This document shows positions 14,260 to 33,102 of a DNA stretch of 45,013 bases, piece after piece (the stretch's first letter is position 1; each line of letters starts with the position of its first letter). The translations under genes were made by a program, and so were the position numbers. Where the stretch lies: positions 1-45,013 of the IMG/VR virus record IMGVR_UViG_3300037458_000563; one strand, written 5' to 3'. A model generated the notes under the pieces. That model was given only the letters and a program-made list of their open reading frames with translations, was not told the origin of the DNA and did not search any database. Source of the stretch: a virus (Duplodnaviria > Caudoviricetes).

Positions 14260-14648
14260 TCCCCTGACTCCGAAAGGATCAGATTCAGCTTGTCAAATGA
14301 CCATTTCCGAACAAAGTCCATGTACCGGCTGAAGGATTCCTGCTCCACCACCGTGGTCGCCTCGTCCGGCACCAACTGGTCCCCGATCAGCGCATAGCAG
14401 GGCTCGAGCACCCCGAGCCGGACAGCCTCGGACTTGAGCGCCCGATGCACCGTGTCGGGGTCATTGCCCGTCTCGGCACATATCTCGTTGTACATAGCCC
14501 AGAGCTTGCGGTTGCTCTGTCCCGATCTGATTACCGGGGAGGGAAGTTTATGCACCTCCACCCAGACATCCCTGCCACGCCACCGATTCAGCCAGTCGGC
14601 CCGCTCGGGCACCAGGGCGTCATCGATGACGTGGCAGAGGTAGCGCAT
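14256..14648 (-). CDS. NinB/Orf-like recombination mediator
   Basis: The RSGQSNRKLWAM...VHRALK...FSRYMDFV pattern resembles NinB/DUF1367. Confidence 0.6.
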   Translation of the reverse strand: MRYLCHVIDDALVPERADWLNRWRGRDVWVEVHKLPSPVIRSGQSNRKLWAMYNEICAETGNDPDTVHRALKSEAVRLGVLEPCYALIGDQLVPDEATTVVEQESFSRYMDFVRKWSFDKLNLILSESGE

Positions 14649-14657
14649 GGCTGGCCC

Positions 14658-15023
14658 CTAGAAGGGCACCTCGTCGTCGGGCGTGTCGGGCTCGACCGGC
14701 CTGGGCTTGGGCTGCGGGGTGTCGGGCGGGTCCACCCGGATGGCGTCCACCCGTTTGCCTTGAAAGTCCACCTTGGTCGGGTACAGCACGATGGTCGTCC
14801 CCGGCCAGTCGTCCGTGTCGTCCGAGCCGTTGATGCCCCAGATGGCCGAAGCGTTGGTCTTGTTCAAGACCAGCCCTCTGTTCTTGCCGCGGAAGTGCAG
14901 GACTGGCTTGGTCTCCCCCCCCACATCCTCGAGCTCAACACGGTCGATAACGACCGTGACCCGCTTGCCGCCGAGATCGGCAGCCTTGATGAACGTACCC
15001 GGGAACGCCGCTGCAACCTTCAC
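14658..15023 (-). CDS. Putative single-stranded DNA-binding protein
   Basis: Beta-rich core (LVLNKTN...DDWPG..IVLY) and SSB-type acidic tail DDEVPF. Confidence 0.65.
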   Translation of the reverse strand: MKVAAAFPGTFIKAADLGGKRVTVVIDRVELEDVGGETKPVLHFRGKNRGLVLNKTNASAIWGINGSDDTDDWPGTTIVLYPTKVDFQGKRVDAIRVDPPDTPQPKPRPVEPDTPDDEVPF

Positions 15024-15259
15024 TTTGACTCCTCCCTAAACCCCTGAAACGGGTCTGCAACGTAGTTTCTGCACTGCCTCATGGCCTTCCTGCGCTGGGC
15101 CGCCCAGAACTCCCGGCGGTATAGCTGCTCCGCCGCATCCCGCCTTGCCTTGAGGCATGACGGGCAAATCGCATCCTTCCGATGCGCTCCCACGTCCCAG
15201 AAACCCCAGCGGCCATCCACTAGAGTCCGGCCGCAGTTCCCTTCGCATTCGAGAATCAC
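15020..15259 (-). CDS. Small zinc-finger protein
   Basis: CEGNC...CPSC. Confidence 0.55.
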   Translation of the reverse strand: MILECEGNCGRTLVDGRWGFWDVGAHRKDAICPSCLKARRDAAEQLYRREFWAAQRRKAMRQCRNYVADPFQGFREESK

Positions 15260-15462
15260 TGCCCTTCCCCCTCGTAGTCCGAGCAGGTCAGCGGCACAGC
15301 CCGTAGCTCCTCGGCGTCCCGCACAGCCTTCTCGATCGCCGGCATCAGCACAGCCGCCACGTCGTCCGGCACGTCCAGCTTGAGGCTGCCCGGCGAGAGT
15401 TCCAGATAAGCAGCCGTCCAGCCGGGCCACTGCGTCCAGGTGCGCCAGCCCAGATGCTTCAC
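15256..15462 (-). CDS. Hypothetical protein
   Basis: GTGA-coupled at both ends. Confidence 0.55.
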   Translation of the reverse strand: MKHLGWRTWTQWPGWTAAYLELSPGSLKLDVPDDVAAVLMPAIEKAVRDAEELRAVPLTCSDYEGEGQ

Positions 15463-15785
15463 TTGGCCCCCCTATGCACGAGTGCCCGCTCGGGCCACCC
15501 CATGCGCTCCAGAATCGCCGCCGTGCGCTCCCGGCCCAGCCGGATCGACCGCTCCCGCTCGGCACAGCGCCGCTCGTAAGCCTCCTCGGGAGACTCCGAG
15601 CAGAGCCCGCACACCCCGTCATCGCCCATCACCGTCCGGTACTGCCCGCACTGCGGGCACGGGCGGGAGTGGGCCACCTGGCGGGGATGCCAGTCCCGCG
15701 CCTCCATTTGCTCCCCCAGCGCATAGGCCCGGATATCCGGGTCATACGAGTAGAGGGCATTGGTCGTCGTGTCGCGGGTCATCAC
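15459..15785 (-). CDS. Zinc-finger hypothetical protein
   Basis: CPQC...CGLC; RBS AGGAGG. Confidence 0.6.
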   Translation of the reverse strand: MMTRDTTTNALYSYDPDIRAYALGEQMEARDWHPRQVAHSRPCPQCGQYRTVMGDDGVCGLCSESPEEAYERRCAERERSIRLGRERTAAILERMGWPERALVHRGAK

Positions 15786-15793
15786 CGCACCTC

Positions 15794-15988
15794 CTAGCGC
15801 AGGATGACGCCGCACGGGGTCATGGTGCAGTGGTAGCCCTTGGCCTCCGCGTCCACAATCGCCCGCACGATGTCGAGGCCGCCCCCATAGGTAATGATGC
15901 CCCGCTGCGGCTTCGCCATCAGCCGGTTGTAATGCGTCTGCATCCAGTACGCCGCGACCCGCCGCTGCTTGCTGCTCATGGTCTGCAT
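15794..15988 (-). CDS. Hypothetical protein
   Basis: First gene after the RHH regulator in the leftward early operon. Confidence 0.5.
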   Translation of the reverse strand: MQTMSSKQRRVAAYWMQTHYNRLMAKPQRGIITYGGGLDIVRAIVDAEAKGYHCTMTPCGVILR

Positions 15989-16017
15989 ATCTAGCCCCCT
16001 AGACAGAAACGGCCCGG

Positions 16018-16164
16018 CTACGGCCGGGCCAGGTACTGCCGCAGCGCCTCGGACGTGATGTCCCCAATGCGCCGCTGCTGCTTCGCCGCCAGGATTCGGA
16101 CCCTCTGCACCAGATCGGCCGGCAGCCTCACCAGAGCCGTCTTACCCTCGCTCGCCTTCTTCAT
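16018..16164 (-). CDS. Ribbon-helix-helix (Arc/CopG-like) regulator
   Basis: TALVRLPADLVQRVRILAA...IGDITSEALRQYL; RBS GAGGAGG. Confidence 0.8.
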   Translation of the reverse strand: MKKASEGKTALVRLPADLVQRVRILAAKQQRRIGDITSEALRQYLARP

Positions 16165-16182
16165 CAATCCTCCTCGCCCGAC

Positions 16183-16211
16183 ACAATACGCCTGCGTGGC
16201 TAGCTTGTCAA
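16183..16211 (-). promoter_or_regulatory. Sigma70-type leftward early promoter
   Basis: TTGACA-17 nt-TATTGT upstream of the RHH gene. Confidence 0.75.
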
Positions 16212-16250
16212 CCAATTAATTTGGCTATCCGTTGGAATCGCCCACCCCTG

Positions 16251-16280
16251 TTGACTGGCTTACCGGAGGGGCCTTACATT
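16251..16280 (+). promoter_or_regulatory. Sigma70-type rightward promoter
   Basis: TTGACT-18 nt-TACATT upstream of the second RHH gene. Confidence 0.6.
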
Positions 16281-16299
16281 CGAGACACAGGGGGGACAC

Positions 16300-16482
16300 A
16301 TGCCAGCCACAAAGTCAGCCAAGGTGTCGCGGCCGCGTCCGAAGGTGACCGGCCTGCGCTTCGACCGCGAGCTCATCAAGGAGATGAAGCACCGGGCCGT
16401 GGACTCCGAGCGCACCTTGACGGAGCTCATCGAGCAGGCCATGCGCGAGTACCTGGGCCGCGCTCGAGCCGGACAGCGGTAG
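16300..16482 (+). CDS. Ribbon-helix-helix regulator (possible repressor)
   Basis: VTGLRFDRELIKEMKHRAVDSERTLTELIEQAMREYL; divergent from the other RHH gene. Confidence 0.8.
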   Translation: MPATKSAKVSRPRPKVTGLRFDRELIKEMKHRAVDSERTLTELIEQAMREYLGRARAGQR

Positions 16483-16804
16483 ACACCACTCGGACAGTCC
16501 GTAAGTGTCCGCTACCTAGAATATGTGTTATCGGAACCTGACGCATGGACGCCCCCACGTCCGCTAAGTGCCCGATCCTCATATGATTCCGGGCGTTACT
16601 CATCGTCAAACGCGGCTCACGGGGCTATCTTCCACAGCCCCGGACTTATTGTCAACCGATTTACATGCACCACAGCAGAGCCCGCTAAGGGTCGCCAGAA
16701 AGACGGACAGCCTGCACGGCATGACGCCACATTTTCTGGGCGGTTATCGTTGCAAAAAATAGGGCGTTTGTTCTAACCGCGGATAGAATCTGCTAGGTGA
16801 TTGA

Positions 16805-28919: not shown

Positions 28920-30143
28920 TTAGGCAGTGCGGAGGTACTTGACCGCCGTGGTGTCGATCAGGTTGCCGTCCACCCGCTGGCTGGCCTCGAACACAGCCTG
29001 ATGGCTCAGGAAGTAGAGATCATCCGAGCGACGCAGCGTGATGCCGCCGGCCACCCGGACGAAGTACTTGCTGAAGTCGCCGAAGAGCACCAGCCGCTTG
29101 TTGGTGGCGAAGGTGCCATCCTGGTCATTGTTGATCACGACCGGGACGCCGAAGAGCCGGTCAGGCTGGCCCTGCTGGACGGCCATCTGCCATAGATATT
29201 GATTGTTCGAGTCCTTCAGCTTGCGGACATAGGCCGCGACAGCGTCGTTCATCATGAACGCGCAGTTGGGCGACATGCGGTAGGCGATATCGACCGCATG
29301 ATACAAATCGATCACCTCATCCAAAGTGATAGCATTGGTGGCCGAGGCCGTCTTGCCGAGGGCAGCCTTGACCTGGACGCCGCCGGGCTGGCTCGAGCCC
29401 GTGCCGGTCGTGAAGTAGGTATTCTTGATGCGGCCGATGCGGGTGCCCAGCGCGGCCCCGAGGTACTGGCTCAGGTTGATGCTCGAATCCTGAAGGAGCT
29501 CGTTGGAGATCAGCACGGCATCGCTCGACATCTTGTAGCTCGACAGCACGACCTGCCCGAAGCTGGGGTCGGTCGTGGTGGTGGCGCCGGTTGCCTCGGT
29601 CAGCAGCCGCCCGGTGTTCGACGTGTCGTCCACCGTGGGGACGGGCAGGCTGGCCCCGGTCGCCGTGGTGATGACCGTGGCGAGGTTCTGCACCCGGCCA
29701 TACCACTTCTCGACCTCGACAAAAGCCCTCATCATCTCGTCGGGGACAGAGTTGCCGCCGGCCGTGGTCGTGCCCACGGACAGGGCGCGGAGGTCGAATT
29801 CCTTGGAGCTCGGCCGGATGCCGTAGAACGCAGCCGCCGCGTGCTCGTCCTCGCTGCGGGCCTCGCCGCGCAGCCAGGCGCGGAGGGCGTGCTCCGGGTT
29901 GGGGCGAGCGTCGGTGACGATCGTTTCCGTCTTGCGGCCAGCCGACTGGTTGAGGATCTTGCGCTCCTCGTCGGCCTTCTCGTGGAGGGCGATGGTCGCC
30001 TTGATCTGGTCGATCTCGGCGTCCATGCGCTTGATGGTTTCCTGCTCCTCGGTGGAGACGGCCCGCTTCTCGTTGTCGGCCTTGTCGAGGATGGCCTTGA
30101 TGTCCTCATTCAGCTTGGCCCGCTGCTCGTACAGGTGCTTCAT
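28920..30143 (-). CDS. Major capsid protein, HK97 fold with delta domain
   Basis: Coiled-coil N-terminus, GGNSVP, ISNELLQDS, GTGSSQPGG, LKDSNNQYLW, LFGDFS. Confidence 0.95.
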   Translation of the reverse strand: MKHLYEQRAKLNEDIKAILDKADNEKRAVSTEEQETIKRMDAEIDQIKATIALHEKADEERKILNQSAGRKTETIVTDARPNPEHALRAWLRGEARSEDEHAAAAFYGIRPSSKEFDLRALSVGTTTAGGNSVPDEMMRAFVEVEKWYGRVQNLATVITTATGASLPVPTVDDTSNTGRLLTEATGATTTTDPSFGQVVLSSYKMSSDAVLISNELLQDSSINLSQYLGAALGTRIGRIKNTYFTTGTGSSQPGGVQVKAALGKTASATNAITLDEVIDLYHAVDIAYRMSPNCAFMMNDAVAAYVRKLKDSNNQYLWQMAVQQGQPDRLFGVPVVINNDQDGTFATNKRLVLFGDFSKYFVRVAGGITLRRSDDLYFLSHQAVFEASQRVDGNLIDTTAVKYLRTA

Positions 30144-30347
30144 TTGCTTAGCGCCTCCTGCGCTTGTCGCCAGGAGCGCCGGGCCAGAAAGCCGAAGGGC
30201 GCGAGCCCTGGCAGAGATCAAACGGCAATCACTGCTTGGCTTCGCGCCCTGCTCAGCGGGGTCGCTGAAGTCTTGGACGGTCGTTCGGGTTGACCAGCAA
30301 CCTCGGCGGCCGAACTAGTCGTCAGTCACAGTCTAGCACATATGTCT

Positions 30348-30460
30348 AGCCTCGCTCTAAGTATTCGGTTCTCTCCTTGACCACGGCTCGCTCAAGCTTC
30401 TCGGTTCTCTCGGCCCACCCGGCTCGCTCCCCTCTCGCGGTTCTCTCGCTCACGACGGCT
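30348..30460 (-). ncRNA. TIGR-like dual-repeat array, distal (3 x 36-nt units)
   Basis: Minus strand: AGCCG tcgtgagcg AGAGAACCG cgagagggg AGCGAGCCG ggtgggccg AGAGAACCG agaagcttg AGCGAGCCG tggtcaagg AGAGAACCG aatacttag AGCGAGGCT. Confidence 0.85.
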
Positions 30461-30471
30461 ATACATCTAGC

Positions 30472-31389
30472 CTAGTCGATAGGCCAATTGGGGACGGGGA
30501 TGTAGTCCGCGTGCCCGCCCGGCCCGAGGATGTAGGGCATGGGCGGGGGCGTCCCCATCTCGACCTCGTGCAGCACATGGTGGAAGTGGGACAGGAAGAT
30601 CTTGGCGACGTAGCGCCCGGCGCGCCAGTCCAAGCCGACCGGCTGGAGCTTGCCGCTGCCCCAGATCTCCCGCTGAAGCGGGCTGATGCTCCACCTGTTC
30701 TTCGTCGCCAGCTCGAGCCGGGCCAGCGCCTGCTCCCGGAACATCCCGGCCTCGTTGCGCTCGATCTCCTGCGCCTTGCGCTTGCGCCACAGCTTGGCAT
30801 AGAGGCAGTCCGACCGCTCGCCAGCCTTCTTGAACTGCTCCCCGATGAGCCATGCGGTGGTCTTGAGCTTGGCGCAGTGGGGCCGCTTCTTGCCCTTCTC
30901 CCACTTCGCCGTGGGGTCCAGCCCGGCGAATCGCCACACCTTGCCGGCCGTGTTGATGTACCCCTCGTGGCAGTCGGGCGTGCAGGGGTTGGCCTTGGAG
31001 CAGCGCACCCTGGCACGGCAGACCCACGGCCTGATTTCGATGTATGCGAGGAGCACCCCGGCGTATGTGGCTCCGATGCCCGGGATACTCAGCGCCCAGC
31101 GGCCAGCCCGGTGGGTCATCACCATCGCCTCGATGGCCTTGTCTGCCTTCTTCTCGATGGTTTCGTGGTCCTCGCGCAGCAGGCGCAGCGCGAAGGAATC
31201 CGGCGACGTGTCCACCCTGCGCTCGATGGCCCCGATCTGGTTTCCCGTGGCCTTGCGGTTCTCCTGTGCTGACATGCGGAGGTCCACCAGCGCACGGAGC
31301 ACATCCTTGTCGAATGTGGCCTCGGCACGGATGGCCTTGACCTGCGCCCGCGTCCAACGCTCGACGTTCAATGACTCGCTCATGTTCAC
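30472..31389 (-). CDS. IS110/Nop-domain RNA-binding protein lacking a nuclease domain; TasA-like
   Basis: Coiled-coil N-terminus, then LSIPGIGATYAGVLLAYI and KVWRFAGLDP (IS110 Tnp20/Nop-like), YAKLWRKRK and RYVAKIFL. No DEDD RuvC domain and no HNH. Flanked on both sides by 36-nt arrays. Confidence 0.8.
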   Translation of the reverse strand: MNMSESLNVERWTRAQVKAIRAEATFDKDVLRALVDLRMSAQENRKATGNQIGAIERRVDTSPDSFALRLLREDHETIEKKADKAIEAMVMTHRAGRWALSIPGIGATYAGVLLAYIEIRPWVCRARVRCSKANPCTPDCHEGYINTAGKVWRFAGLDPTAKWEKGKKRPHCAKLKTTAWLIGEQFKKAGERSDCLYAKLWRKRKAQEIERNEAGMFREQALARLELATKNRWSISPLQREIWGSGKLQPVGLDWRAGRYVAKIFLSHFHHVLHEVEMGTPPPMPYILGPGGHADYIPVPNWPID

Positions 31390-31405
31390 TCCCCCTAAGT
31401 TAAAT

Positions 31406-31594
31406 TGGCTCGCTCCGCTAAGTCGGTTCTCTCAAGAGAAGCGGCTCGCTCGGGCTGCGCGGTTCTCTCCAGCTTCTCGGCTCGCTCCGGGACGACGGTT
31501 CCCTCTGGGTCATCGGCTCGCTCAGGCCGCTCGGTTCTCTCTACCGACCCGGCTCGCTCACACCAAACGGTTCTCTCCTCTGCGACGGCTCGGC
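31406..31594 (-). ncRNA. TIGR-like dual-repeat array, middle (5 x 36-nt units)
   Basis: Alternating AGCGAGCCG / AGAGAACCG repeats (one AGGGAACCG variant) with spacers tcgcagagg, tttggtgtg, ggtcggtag, agcggcctg, atgacccag, tcgtcccgg, agaagctgg, cgcagcccg, cttctcttg, acttagcgg. Confidence 0.88.
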
Positions 31595-31603
31595 TCATTG
31601 CTG

Positions 31604-32173
31604 TTACTCGGCCTTGGTGGCCTTAGCCATGAGCGTGGCGAGCTGGTCATCGGTCAGCACCTGACCGACCGTCTCGCCCGTCTTGATCTTGAGCGTTTGC
31701 AGCCGCTTCTCCAGCAGCCGCATGAATCGCCCATTCCTGGCGTTGCCCTGCGCGTTGGCCTCGTACATCTCAGCCTCGCGCCGGACATCCTGTAGCGTTG
31801 CCTCGCCCAGAAGTCGCTTGTCGCTCATCGGCCATGCCAGGTACTTCCCCGCCCACTCCGACACCTTGCGGCAGACCTCCTCGGAGTACGCCTGCTCCTT
31901 CTGCTTGGTGTACGGCTTGGCTGGCTGGGACGTGAGCAGCCTGTCATCCACCACGCCGGTGATATCCACCCGACGGGCGGCCATAGCCAGCCGGATCTCA
32001 GCCCGAGCCGCCCTGTGAATGGCCCAGGTGATCAGGCGTGCCTGCGAGTTGATGCCGGCCACGACCTTCTCTTCGGCGGCCCTGTAGCCATGCTGCGCTA
32101 TCGCAGCATCGGCCATCCTGCGGACGATGGCACCCTCCGGCTCCGTCTCCACGCTCGACTTGTCAAACCCCAT
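31604..32173 (-). CDS. Unknown helical protein embedded between TIGR-like arrays
   Basis: 189-aa ORF with RBS AAGGGG; no family recognised. Confidence 0.75.
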   Translation of the reverse strand: MGFDKSSVETEPEGAIVRRMADAAIAQHGYRAAEEKVVAGINSQARLITWAIHRAARAEIRLAMAARRVDITGVVDDRLLTSQPAKPYTKQKEQAYSEEVCRKVSEWAGKYLAWPMSDKRLLGEATLQDVRREAEMYEANAQGNARNGRFMRLLEKRLQTLKIKTGETVGQVLTDDQLATLMAKATKAE

Positions 32174-32210
32174 GCATCCCCTTTCGTGAGCCTTCCCGGC
32201 TCGTTAATGT

Positions 32211-32323
32211 GCGCTCACGGAGTACGGTTCTCTCTTCATACGCGGCTCGCTCGTAAACGACGGTTCTCTCGTCGGCCACGGCTCGCTCGTTTCTCACGGT
32301 TCTCTCCGAACCCGCGGCTCGCT
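32211..32323 (-). ncRNA. TIGR-like dual-repeat array, proximal (3 x 36-nt units)
   Basis: Same repeats, with spacers cgggttcgg, tgagaaacg, tggccgacg, tcgtttacg, cgtatgaag, tactccgtg. Confidence 0.85.
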
Positions 32324-32327
32324 GCTC

Positions 32328-32525
32328 TCATCGCTTCATGCGGTACTGGAAGCCGGGCCACTCCTGTTTCACTTCGGCCCGCCCCTCCTTCACCAGCCCA
32401 GACAGGTGTGCCCTCACCGTCCGAGCGCACACGCTGGGCACCTTCGCCCCGACATCGACAGCCGTCTGCCACTCCCGGCTCAGGGCACCCTCGACTGCTC
32501 GCCTGTGTGGCGATCCTCGTTTCAT
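32328..32525 (-). CDS. Small winged-HTH protein, first gene of the TIGR-like cassette
   Basis: GGAGG-8 nt-ATG; TAVDVGAKV...ARTVRAHLSGLVKEGRAEV...YR. Confidence 0.7.
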   Translation of the reverse strand: MKRGSPHRRAVEGALSREWQTAVDVGAKVPSVCARTVRAHLSGLVKEGRAEVKQEWPGFQYRMKR

Positions 32526-32555
32526 TCCATACCCCTCCAATCCGAACCATGCCAG

Positions 32556-32584
32556 AATATAGCAAGCACATACGGCTGTGTCAA
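32556..32584 (-). promoter_or_regulatory. Sigma70 promoter driving the TIGR-like cassette
   Basis: TTGACA-17 nt-TATATT with an extended -10 TG. Confidence 0.8.
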
Positions 32585-32592
32585 CTAGAAAT

Positions 32593-33102
32593 CTAGCCCT
32601 TCAGCGCACGCAGGACGAACGCAAAGTTGTGCTCGTCCTCCCGCACATGAACGGGCTCGAAGTCTGCCTTGTAGCAGAAGCGGAAGTCGGACATGGCAGT
32701 CTTCCCCACCTGCACCCGATACTGCTCCTGGCTCAGAAACACCAGCGAGCCGGTACACAGCACCCGCTTGTGTGACGGGTCGCCCCACGCCCACATGCTC
32801 TTCCACGAGGGCGTGGTGGCGGCCAGATAGCCCCCAGGCTTGAGGATGCGCCAGAGCTCGCTGAACTGCGCGAAGAAGAAGCGCCAGTCGCCTTGCTGAC
32901 CCGTGTGCTCGAGCACCTCATAGGCGTGGATCTCATCGAAGCTGTTGTCCTCGAACGGGTAGGGCAACTGCTCGAGGTCATGCACCACGTCGGGGTGGTG
33001 GTCGGAGTTGTGGTCTAAGGTGACCAACTTTGTCCACTTACTGCGACCATTTATGGCTATCTTCTTCGTCCAGTCGGACCCGCAGCCCAGCAGGAGCTCC
33101 AC
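32593..33102 (-). CDS. Class I SAM-dependent methyltransferase (Methyltransf_11-like, not a DNA type)
   Basis: LGCG, VVHDLEQLPYPFEDNSFDEIHAYEVLEH, ELWRILKPGG. Confidence 0.85.
   Translation of the reverse strand: MELLLGCGSDWTKKIAINGRSKWTKLVTLDHNSDHHPDVVHDLEQLPYPFEDNSFDEIHAYEVLEHTGQQGDWRFFFAQFSELWRILKPGGYLAATTPSWKSMWAWGDPSHKRVLCTGSLVFLSQEQYRVQVGKTAMSDFRFCYKADFEPVHVREDEHNFAFVLRALKG

Follow-up and report, generated by a model that had tools for sequence, protein, structure and literature searches.

A conserved, unnamed 189-aa protein encoded between dual-repeat TIGR arrays of a virus is a likely lineage-restricted partner of TasA

Introduction

Dual-repeat TIGR-TasA systems are phage-borne loci in which arrays of alternating edge and loop repeats, with 36-nt units, flank a Tas protein that consists of a solo Nop domain (Faure 2025, PMC12045711). 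According to the available text of that source, TasA has no clear protein associations save for an occasional ParB-like gene, and tasParB is the only TasA partner that it names. The tasParB-tasA operons combine the partner gene and tasA with arrays located upstream of, between and downstream of the two genes, and are found in variable flanks (Faure 2025, PMC12045711). TasA and dead TasR have been described as RNA-guided repressors; TasA binds DNA through paired spacers and represses transcription, and TasA proteins of other clades do this in E. coli (Xu 2026, bioRxiv 10.64898/2026.09.09.750476). The words 'partner' and 'ParB' do not occur in Xu 2026. The natural role of nuclease-free TasA and the origin of TIGR arrays are stated as open questions by both sources.

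The window analysed here is a stretch of 45 013 bases comprising a virus record of 96 % completeness (CheckV). A preliminary description of this window had drawn attention to a 189-aa gene between two arrays and proposed that its product might be a partner of a nuclease-less Tas, either as an effector or as a spacer-acquisition factor.

Results

Genome context and layout of the cassette

Genes of the head region recognised from translations (terminase, portal, prohead protease, a methyltransferase-like gene with Pfam PF08241 and major capsid) lie on the - strand, and a 2.2-kb cassette is located between the methyltransferase-like gene and the major capsid gene. The cassette is of the dual-repeat TIGR-TasA type and has the following order:

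32556..32584, - strand: predicted sigma-70-like promoter (11/12 consensus, 17-nt spacer, TG before the -10)
32328..32525, - strand: 65-aa ORF, possible winged-helix regulator (good RBS, weak HTH matches)
32212..32319, - strand: TIGR dual-repeat array 1 (3 units of 36 nt)
32188..32202, - strand: 5-bp hairpin directly before the RBS of the 189-aa gene (5' arm resembles half of an edge repeat)
31604..32173, - strand: 189-aa gene, helical two-lobe protein, likely TasA partner (ATG start, purine-rich RBS)
31411..31590, - strand: TIGR dual-repeat array 2 (5 units)
30472..31389, - strand: TasA, solo Nop domain, about 303-305 aa (phrog_4285, E 7e-31)
30353..30460, - strand: TIGR dual-repeat array 3, after TasA (3 units)

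The location of the gene between two arrays was thereby confirmed (arrays 1 and 2). In the 11 array units, edge and loop repeats of 10 nt alternate at a period of 36 nt, together with 8 variable nucleotides and an invariant G. The cassette has the alternating 8-12-nt repeats, spacers of about 9 nt and 36-nt unit of dual-repeat arrays as well as the adjacent nuclease-free Nop-domain protein. The loop 9-mer occurred in ten copies within the cassette and one elsewhere in the 45 kb, and the edge 9-mer in nine and five copies, respectively. A search for targets of the 11 guides in adjacent-half geometries found none, whether in the window itself, among capsid relatives (51 kb, <=2 mismatches) or across 1.1 Mb from other loci (<=1 mismatch). 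Guide units were common to, gained or lost between near-identical loci (L005, L007 and L009; L010 and L011; L049), and a Proteobacteria MAG contig (L070, L071) contained the array repeats with no match to Tas or the partner in the fetched DNA.

TasA matched the profiles of 9mty (E 9e-18) and TasH 21kl (E 5e-12), with alignment to the Nop parts of both starting at query position 23. Comparison with these two profiles found no N-terminal nuclease extension, so that the Tas is a solo Nop protein and nuclease-less as first described. The TasA proteins of the window (30940-31030, - strand) and of L013 (4215-5126) contain a Cys/His-rich insertion of ~27 aa, possibly a zinc site, that is missing in the closest relatives. 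Another locus (L100, 3617-5809, - strand) has a 731-aa Tas frame whose Nop match is interrupted by ~420 residues, possibly an intein or a large insertion.

The gene had also been assigned to the same transcription unit as its neighbours. One promoter-like site was found at the cassette head (0.4 expected by shuffles) and a simple scan detected no terminator-like sites on the - strand from 30100 to 32700. These findings support the assignment and point to co-transcription, with the shared transcript itself, from the promoter at 32584 and spanning the cassette, being a likely prediction.

The 65-aa ORF between this promoter and array 1, absent from the preliminary description, had sub-threshold Pfam HTH matches (E 0.11-0.17) and was winged-helix-like by eye. 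Other, unrelated small regulator-like ORFs precede the 189-aa gene homolog at the cassette heads of L003 and L010. The 65-aa ORF did not align with that of L010 and is therefore not a conserved member of the cassette, which suggests that the small head ORFs are a swapped autoregulator. An 8-bp direct repeat is present at both cassette ends (30335-30342 and 32565-32572), each copy inside promoter-like sequence, and seven CTAG sites cluster at these ends and downstream of TasA; these may be operator sites or the scar of an insertion. The major capsid gene has a long leader (~30140-30330, - strand) that is well conserved among three relatives (L158, 4800-5000; L160, 4800-5000; L161, 610-825), contains apparent inverted repeats and is preceded by an extended -10 promoter-like motif. 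This leader is possibly a structured RNA.

A large, unnamed protein family

The 189-aa ORF was confirmed to be a real protein-coding gene by its GC content by codon position (0.65/0.45/0.85) and by the third positions being the most divergent in 10 of 10 homolog pairs. An overlapping 193-aa ORF on the + strand (32015-32596) had no Pfam match and is probably a shadow frame; it was disregarded.

No Pfam family matched the protein and PHROGs gave one weak match (E 0.013), in agreement with the earlier statement that no family was recognisable. Word-based searches identified 14 close proteins with 40-56 % identity, while a full HMMER scan extended the family to 436 clusters at E <=0.001. In a set of 150 members, any given Pfam or PHROG family covered one at most. 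The family is therefore large and unnamed. There was nothing below E 0.007 in a PDB sequence search, no usable match in the ESM Atlas, no match by tblastn of four family members in phages and one in plasmids, and no locus of the protein in GTDB genomes. No description of the family was found in the literature searched, the scope of which ended before fig. S14 and the supplementary PDF of Faure 2025.

A structural model from 150 sequences (pLDDT 89.8, pTM 0.68) predicts two lobes joined by a flexible linker, the N-terminal one helical and the C-terminal one containing a small hairpin and a long helix. A Foldseek search of the PDB with a weaker model gave no match at E 0.001, and the best VIA Z for that model was 5.2. 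A predicted complex of TasA (37-row alignment) and the 189-aa protein (150 rows), comprising one copy of each with RNA and DNA omitted, had a score of 0.00 and was uninformative either way.

Conserved positions among the 150 sequences were mostly hydrophobic or small, i.e. structural. Since TasA is without a nuclease, the protein could supply a nuclease or modifying activity recruited to the target by TasA, and R68 (98 %), T126, Y137 (68 %), N144 and R149 are conserved polar positions, with R68, Y137, N144 and R149 conserved in part of the family. However, no D, E, H, C or K reached 60 % conservation in the 150 sequences, and Y137 and N144 are missing from the actinophage proteins described below. 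The same alignment contained no conserved metal-binding acidic or His residues and no catalytic Tyr/Ser of the Cas1-like or integrase type. A nuclease or Cas1-like role is thus unlikely, and the proposal of a catalytic effector, with no conserved acidic, His or Cys residue to sustain it, is very improbable.

A conserved hairpin before the gene

The hairpin preceding the RBS, which had escaped the preliminary description, occurs once in the window. Of 13 loci, 11 have a similar hairpin, and the window copy carries a compensatory change. Such conservation, together with the basic nature of the protein (pI 9.35) and the usual position of the gene upstream of TasA in the transcript, is what would be expected of a regulator or inhibitor that limits TasA, either protecting the carrier or binding its own pre-start hairpin and so setting the levels of guides and protein. 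However, the hairpin is missing in L004, is different in L049 and may only shield a processed mRNA end. The search with the 11 guides also detected no self-target from which the carrier would need protection. A regulatory function is therefore regarded as unlikely.

Linkage to TasA and arrays

Eleven metagenome loci, representing ~7 independent lineages of which six have arrays, were reached by the 189-aa protein alone; two viral loci identical to the window were left out of this count. The same repeats lay beside the homolog in 10 of the 11 loci and a Tas was visible in seven, with the contigs of L006, L008 and L012 ending within ~160 bp downstream of the homolog. Linkage was kept despite a reversed gene order in L013 and despite unrelated upstream genes. 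At 31 % identity, the homolog in a further locus, L049, still keeps the gene order of the window; this locus was reached through an array search and hence is not unbiased. Among these loci, the 189-aa protein is mostly inherited together with TasA and the guide arrays. Homologs with enough surrounding DNA mostly adjoin Tas and arrays, and the partner idea thus withstood this neighbourhood analysis.

The opposite direction of linkage was assessed with 54 distinct Tas sequences obtained from array and Tas searches. A homolog of the 189-aa protein was present with seven, and none was detectable in the fetched DNA for 47, of which 28 have at least 2 kb on both sides and at least one is a cut duplicate. 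Whole records of three viruses with homolog-less Tas had no match to the protein. In a tree of 38 rows, the seven gene-bearing TasA formed one side of a branch (support 100/99). Pairwise identities of TasA correlate with those of the 189-aa protein (rho 0.86 over 15 non-independent pairs), for which kinship alone can be sufficient. These results indicate that TasA usually works without this protein and that the gene is not generally required by these arrays, although it may be supplied in trans to homolog-less arrays. Most of the 47 were reached via the same repeats, and arrays with identical repeats adjoin Tas where the gene is absent. A spacer-acquisition factor of Cas1-like or integrase type would be expected to co-occur generally with the arrays that it serves, and this part of the preliminary description was not borne out.

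Restriction to a single TasA clade in the dual-repeat sample is also compatible with independent cargo (e.g. an anti-host or exclusion function) that hitchhikes by sharing the promoter. The orphan homolog in L004, which immediately follows a promoter-like site on 1155 bp of DNA that contain no array or Tas, is in line with this, as is the movement of cassettes as blocks. However, the gene is kept beside TasA through order reversal and varied flanks and, if the remote link presented next holds, in both array architectures. Cargo is accordingly an improbable explanation.

Remote homologs beside stem-loop TasA in actinophages

The three top BFVD matches to the model were full-length (TM 0.50, 0.57 and 0.43; Foldseek E 0.004, 0.007 and 0.17; RMSD 7-8.5 A). 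The third match, from Mycobacterium phage Omega, is 166 aa long and was taken as gp22. The other two agree in length with Morrissey gp43 (190 aa) and Peregrin gp186 (172 aa), length being the basis of all three assignments. Omega gp22 is followed directly by gp21, a match to the TasA profile (probability 95.9 %), and the gaps of this gene pair hold stem-loop-type units. Searches with gp22 and gp21 retrieved 81 and 91 phage records, respectively, most of them near-clonal among the best 60 matches listed for each. A gp22-family gene was directly upstream of a stem-loop TasA in all seven actinophage loci opened (Omega, Bethlehem, prophiFSAT01-1, Rich, BENtherdunthat, Morrissey and Peregrin), with stem-loop-type units between or inside genes, as in the following:

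L153, 1770-2010: stem-loop guide units
L154, 1554-2000: stem-loop guide units
L152, 1750-1974: stem-loop guide units

These units, from several actinophages, lie inside what is annotated as 5' coding sequence of TasA or as a short ORF. Homologs in ~80 subcluster A1-type records are annotated as transposase, DNA-binding or hypothetical protein.

Profile-profile comparison of the 189-aa and gp22 families gave a probability of 87.6 % (E 3.5e-6, 149 columns) and a score of 41, against <=13.2 in 30 column shuffles and 13.7 for the reversed profile. When 20 test proteins were compared with the 189-aa family profile, the six best were all partners, with Peregrin gp186 ranking below one control. Omega gp22 alone was not significant against this profile (probability 0.4), a reverse search with a six-sequence actinophage profile missed the window protein at E 0.05, and a Microcystis phage Tas had no partner gene. 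Homology between the 189-aa protein and the gp22 family is considered likely. The partner idea gains from this comparison, as the likely remote homologs adjoin a different, stem-loop TasA lineage.

Movement of the cassette as a block

The Omega block of gp22, gp21 and arrays (~14428-16599) is missing from Courthouse and its kin, and 14 of 16 records matching the block query cover <80 % of it. The block has been reported as a precise IS110-like insertion with a 5-bp duplication (Pope 2013, PMC3706429). This published 'IS110-like transposon' (L150, 14428-16599) resembles, and appears to be, a stem-loop TIGR-TasA cassette. The DNA fetched for the three closest capsid relatives of the window (68-77 % identity) contains no such cassette; in L161, the capsid leader directly follows the methyltransferase gene. 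These absences indicate that partner, TasA and arrays move or are lost as a block, which fits a functional unit and also allows hitchhiking.

The 189-aa protein might itself aid cassette movement or array remodelling, be it insertion, shuffling of units or the gain of spacers, by bringing a recombination function of the host or phage to TasA-bent DNA. The precise Omega insertion, the cassette-free capsid relatives and the direct repeats at 30335 and 32565 are consistent with this, as is the re-pairing of spacer halves among 129 units (7 A, 3 B). In Omega gp21, the match to the TasA profile begins as early as residue 12, which leaves a transposase catalytic domain no room. However, a longer promoter-like sequence is common to both ends of the Omega block, and promoter-to-promoter recombination could explain the insertion. 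The absence of conserved catalytic residues and the identical-repeat arrays beside Tas without the 189-aa gene also argue against such a role, which is judged unlikely; that the protein is the missing adaptation or mobility factor seems slightly less probable still, and would, if true, be testable in cultured mycobacteriophages.

Discussion

The 189-aa protein is a real, conserved, unnamed TasA-linked protein. The presence of a conserved helical protein beside TasA in close relatives and, by way of likely remote homologs, in actinophages makes it a likely non-catalytic TasA partner, and the favoured reading, with a probability of about one in two, is that of a lineage-restricted, non-catalytic cofactor of TasA analogous to TasParB. 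One transcript from the 32584 promoter would carry the arrays, the 189-aa gene and TasA, and TasA-dependent processing would convert the arrays into 36-nt guides (cf. Faure 2025, PMC12045711). Guided TasA would then bind DNA and block transcription, an output considered likely by analogy with the other TasA proteins for which it has been shown (Xu 2026). The partner, probably as an oligomer, is predicted to bind the TasA-DNA complex or adjacent bent DNA, and may stabilise or extend the block on a competing phage or host gene. Such a role would be that proposed for TasParB, with a probably different fold.

A second partner family besides ParB provides a handle on the role of TasA and on array origin. 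Should the remote homology be genuine, dozens of cultured Mycobacterium smegmatis phages, in which Tas is annotated as transposase or hypothetical protein, would carry this pair as well, and its role could be addressed directly by genetics in the laboratory host.

Among known systems, the window locus differs from the dual-repeat TIGR-TasA loci of Faure 2025 in its conserved partner. It resembles the tasParB-tasA operons in combining a partner gene and tasA with arrays before, between and after them, the window operon being predicted. However, none of 150 members of the 189-aa family matched ParB (Pfam family, E 0.01), the model of the 189-aa protein is helical with one small predicted hairpin, and the family is found beside dual-repeat and, by remote homology, stem-loop TasA. 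The names Omega, Bethlehem and Morrissey do not occur in the four text supplements of Faure 2025, nor does gp22 in the main text of Pope 2013 (PMC3706429). Omega gp21/gp22 and their subcluster A1 mycobacteriophage homologs share with the window the order of partner, arrays and then Tas, and the Omega block is inserted in the head-gene region, where the window cassette also lies; Omega differs in its stem-loop guides, its divergent TasA and the remote homology of gp22.
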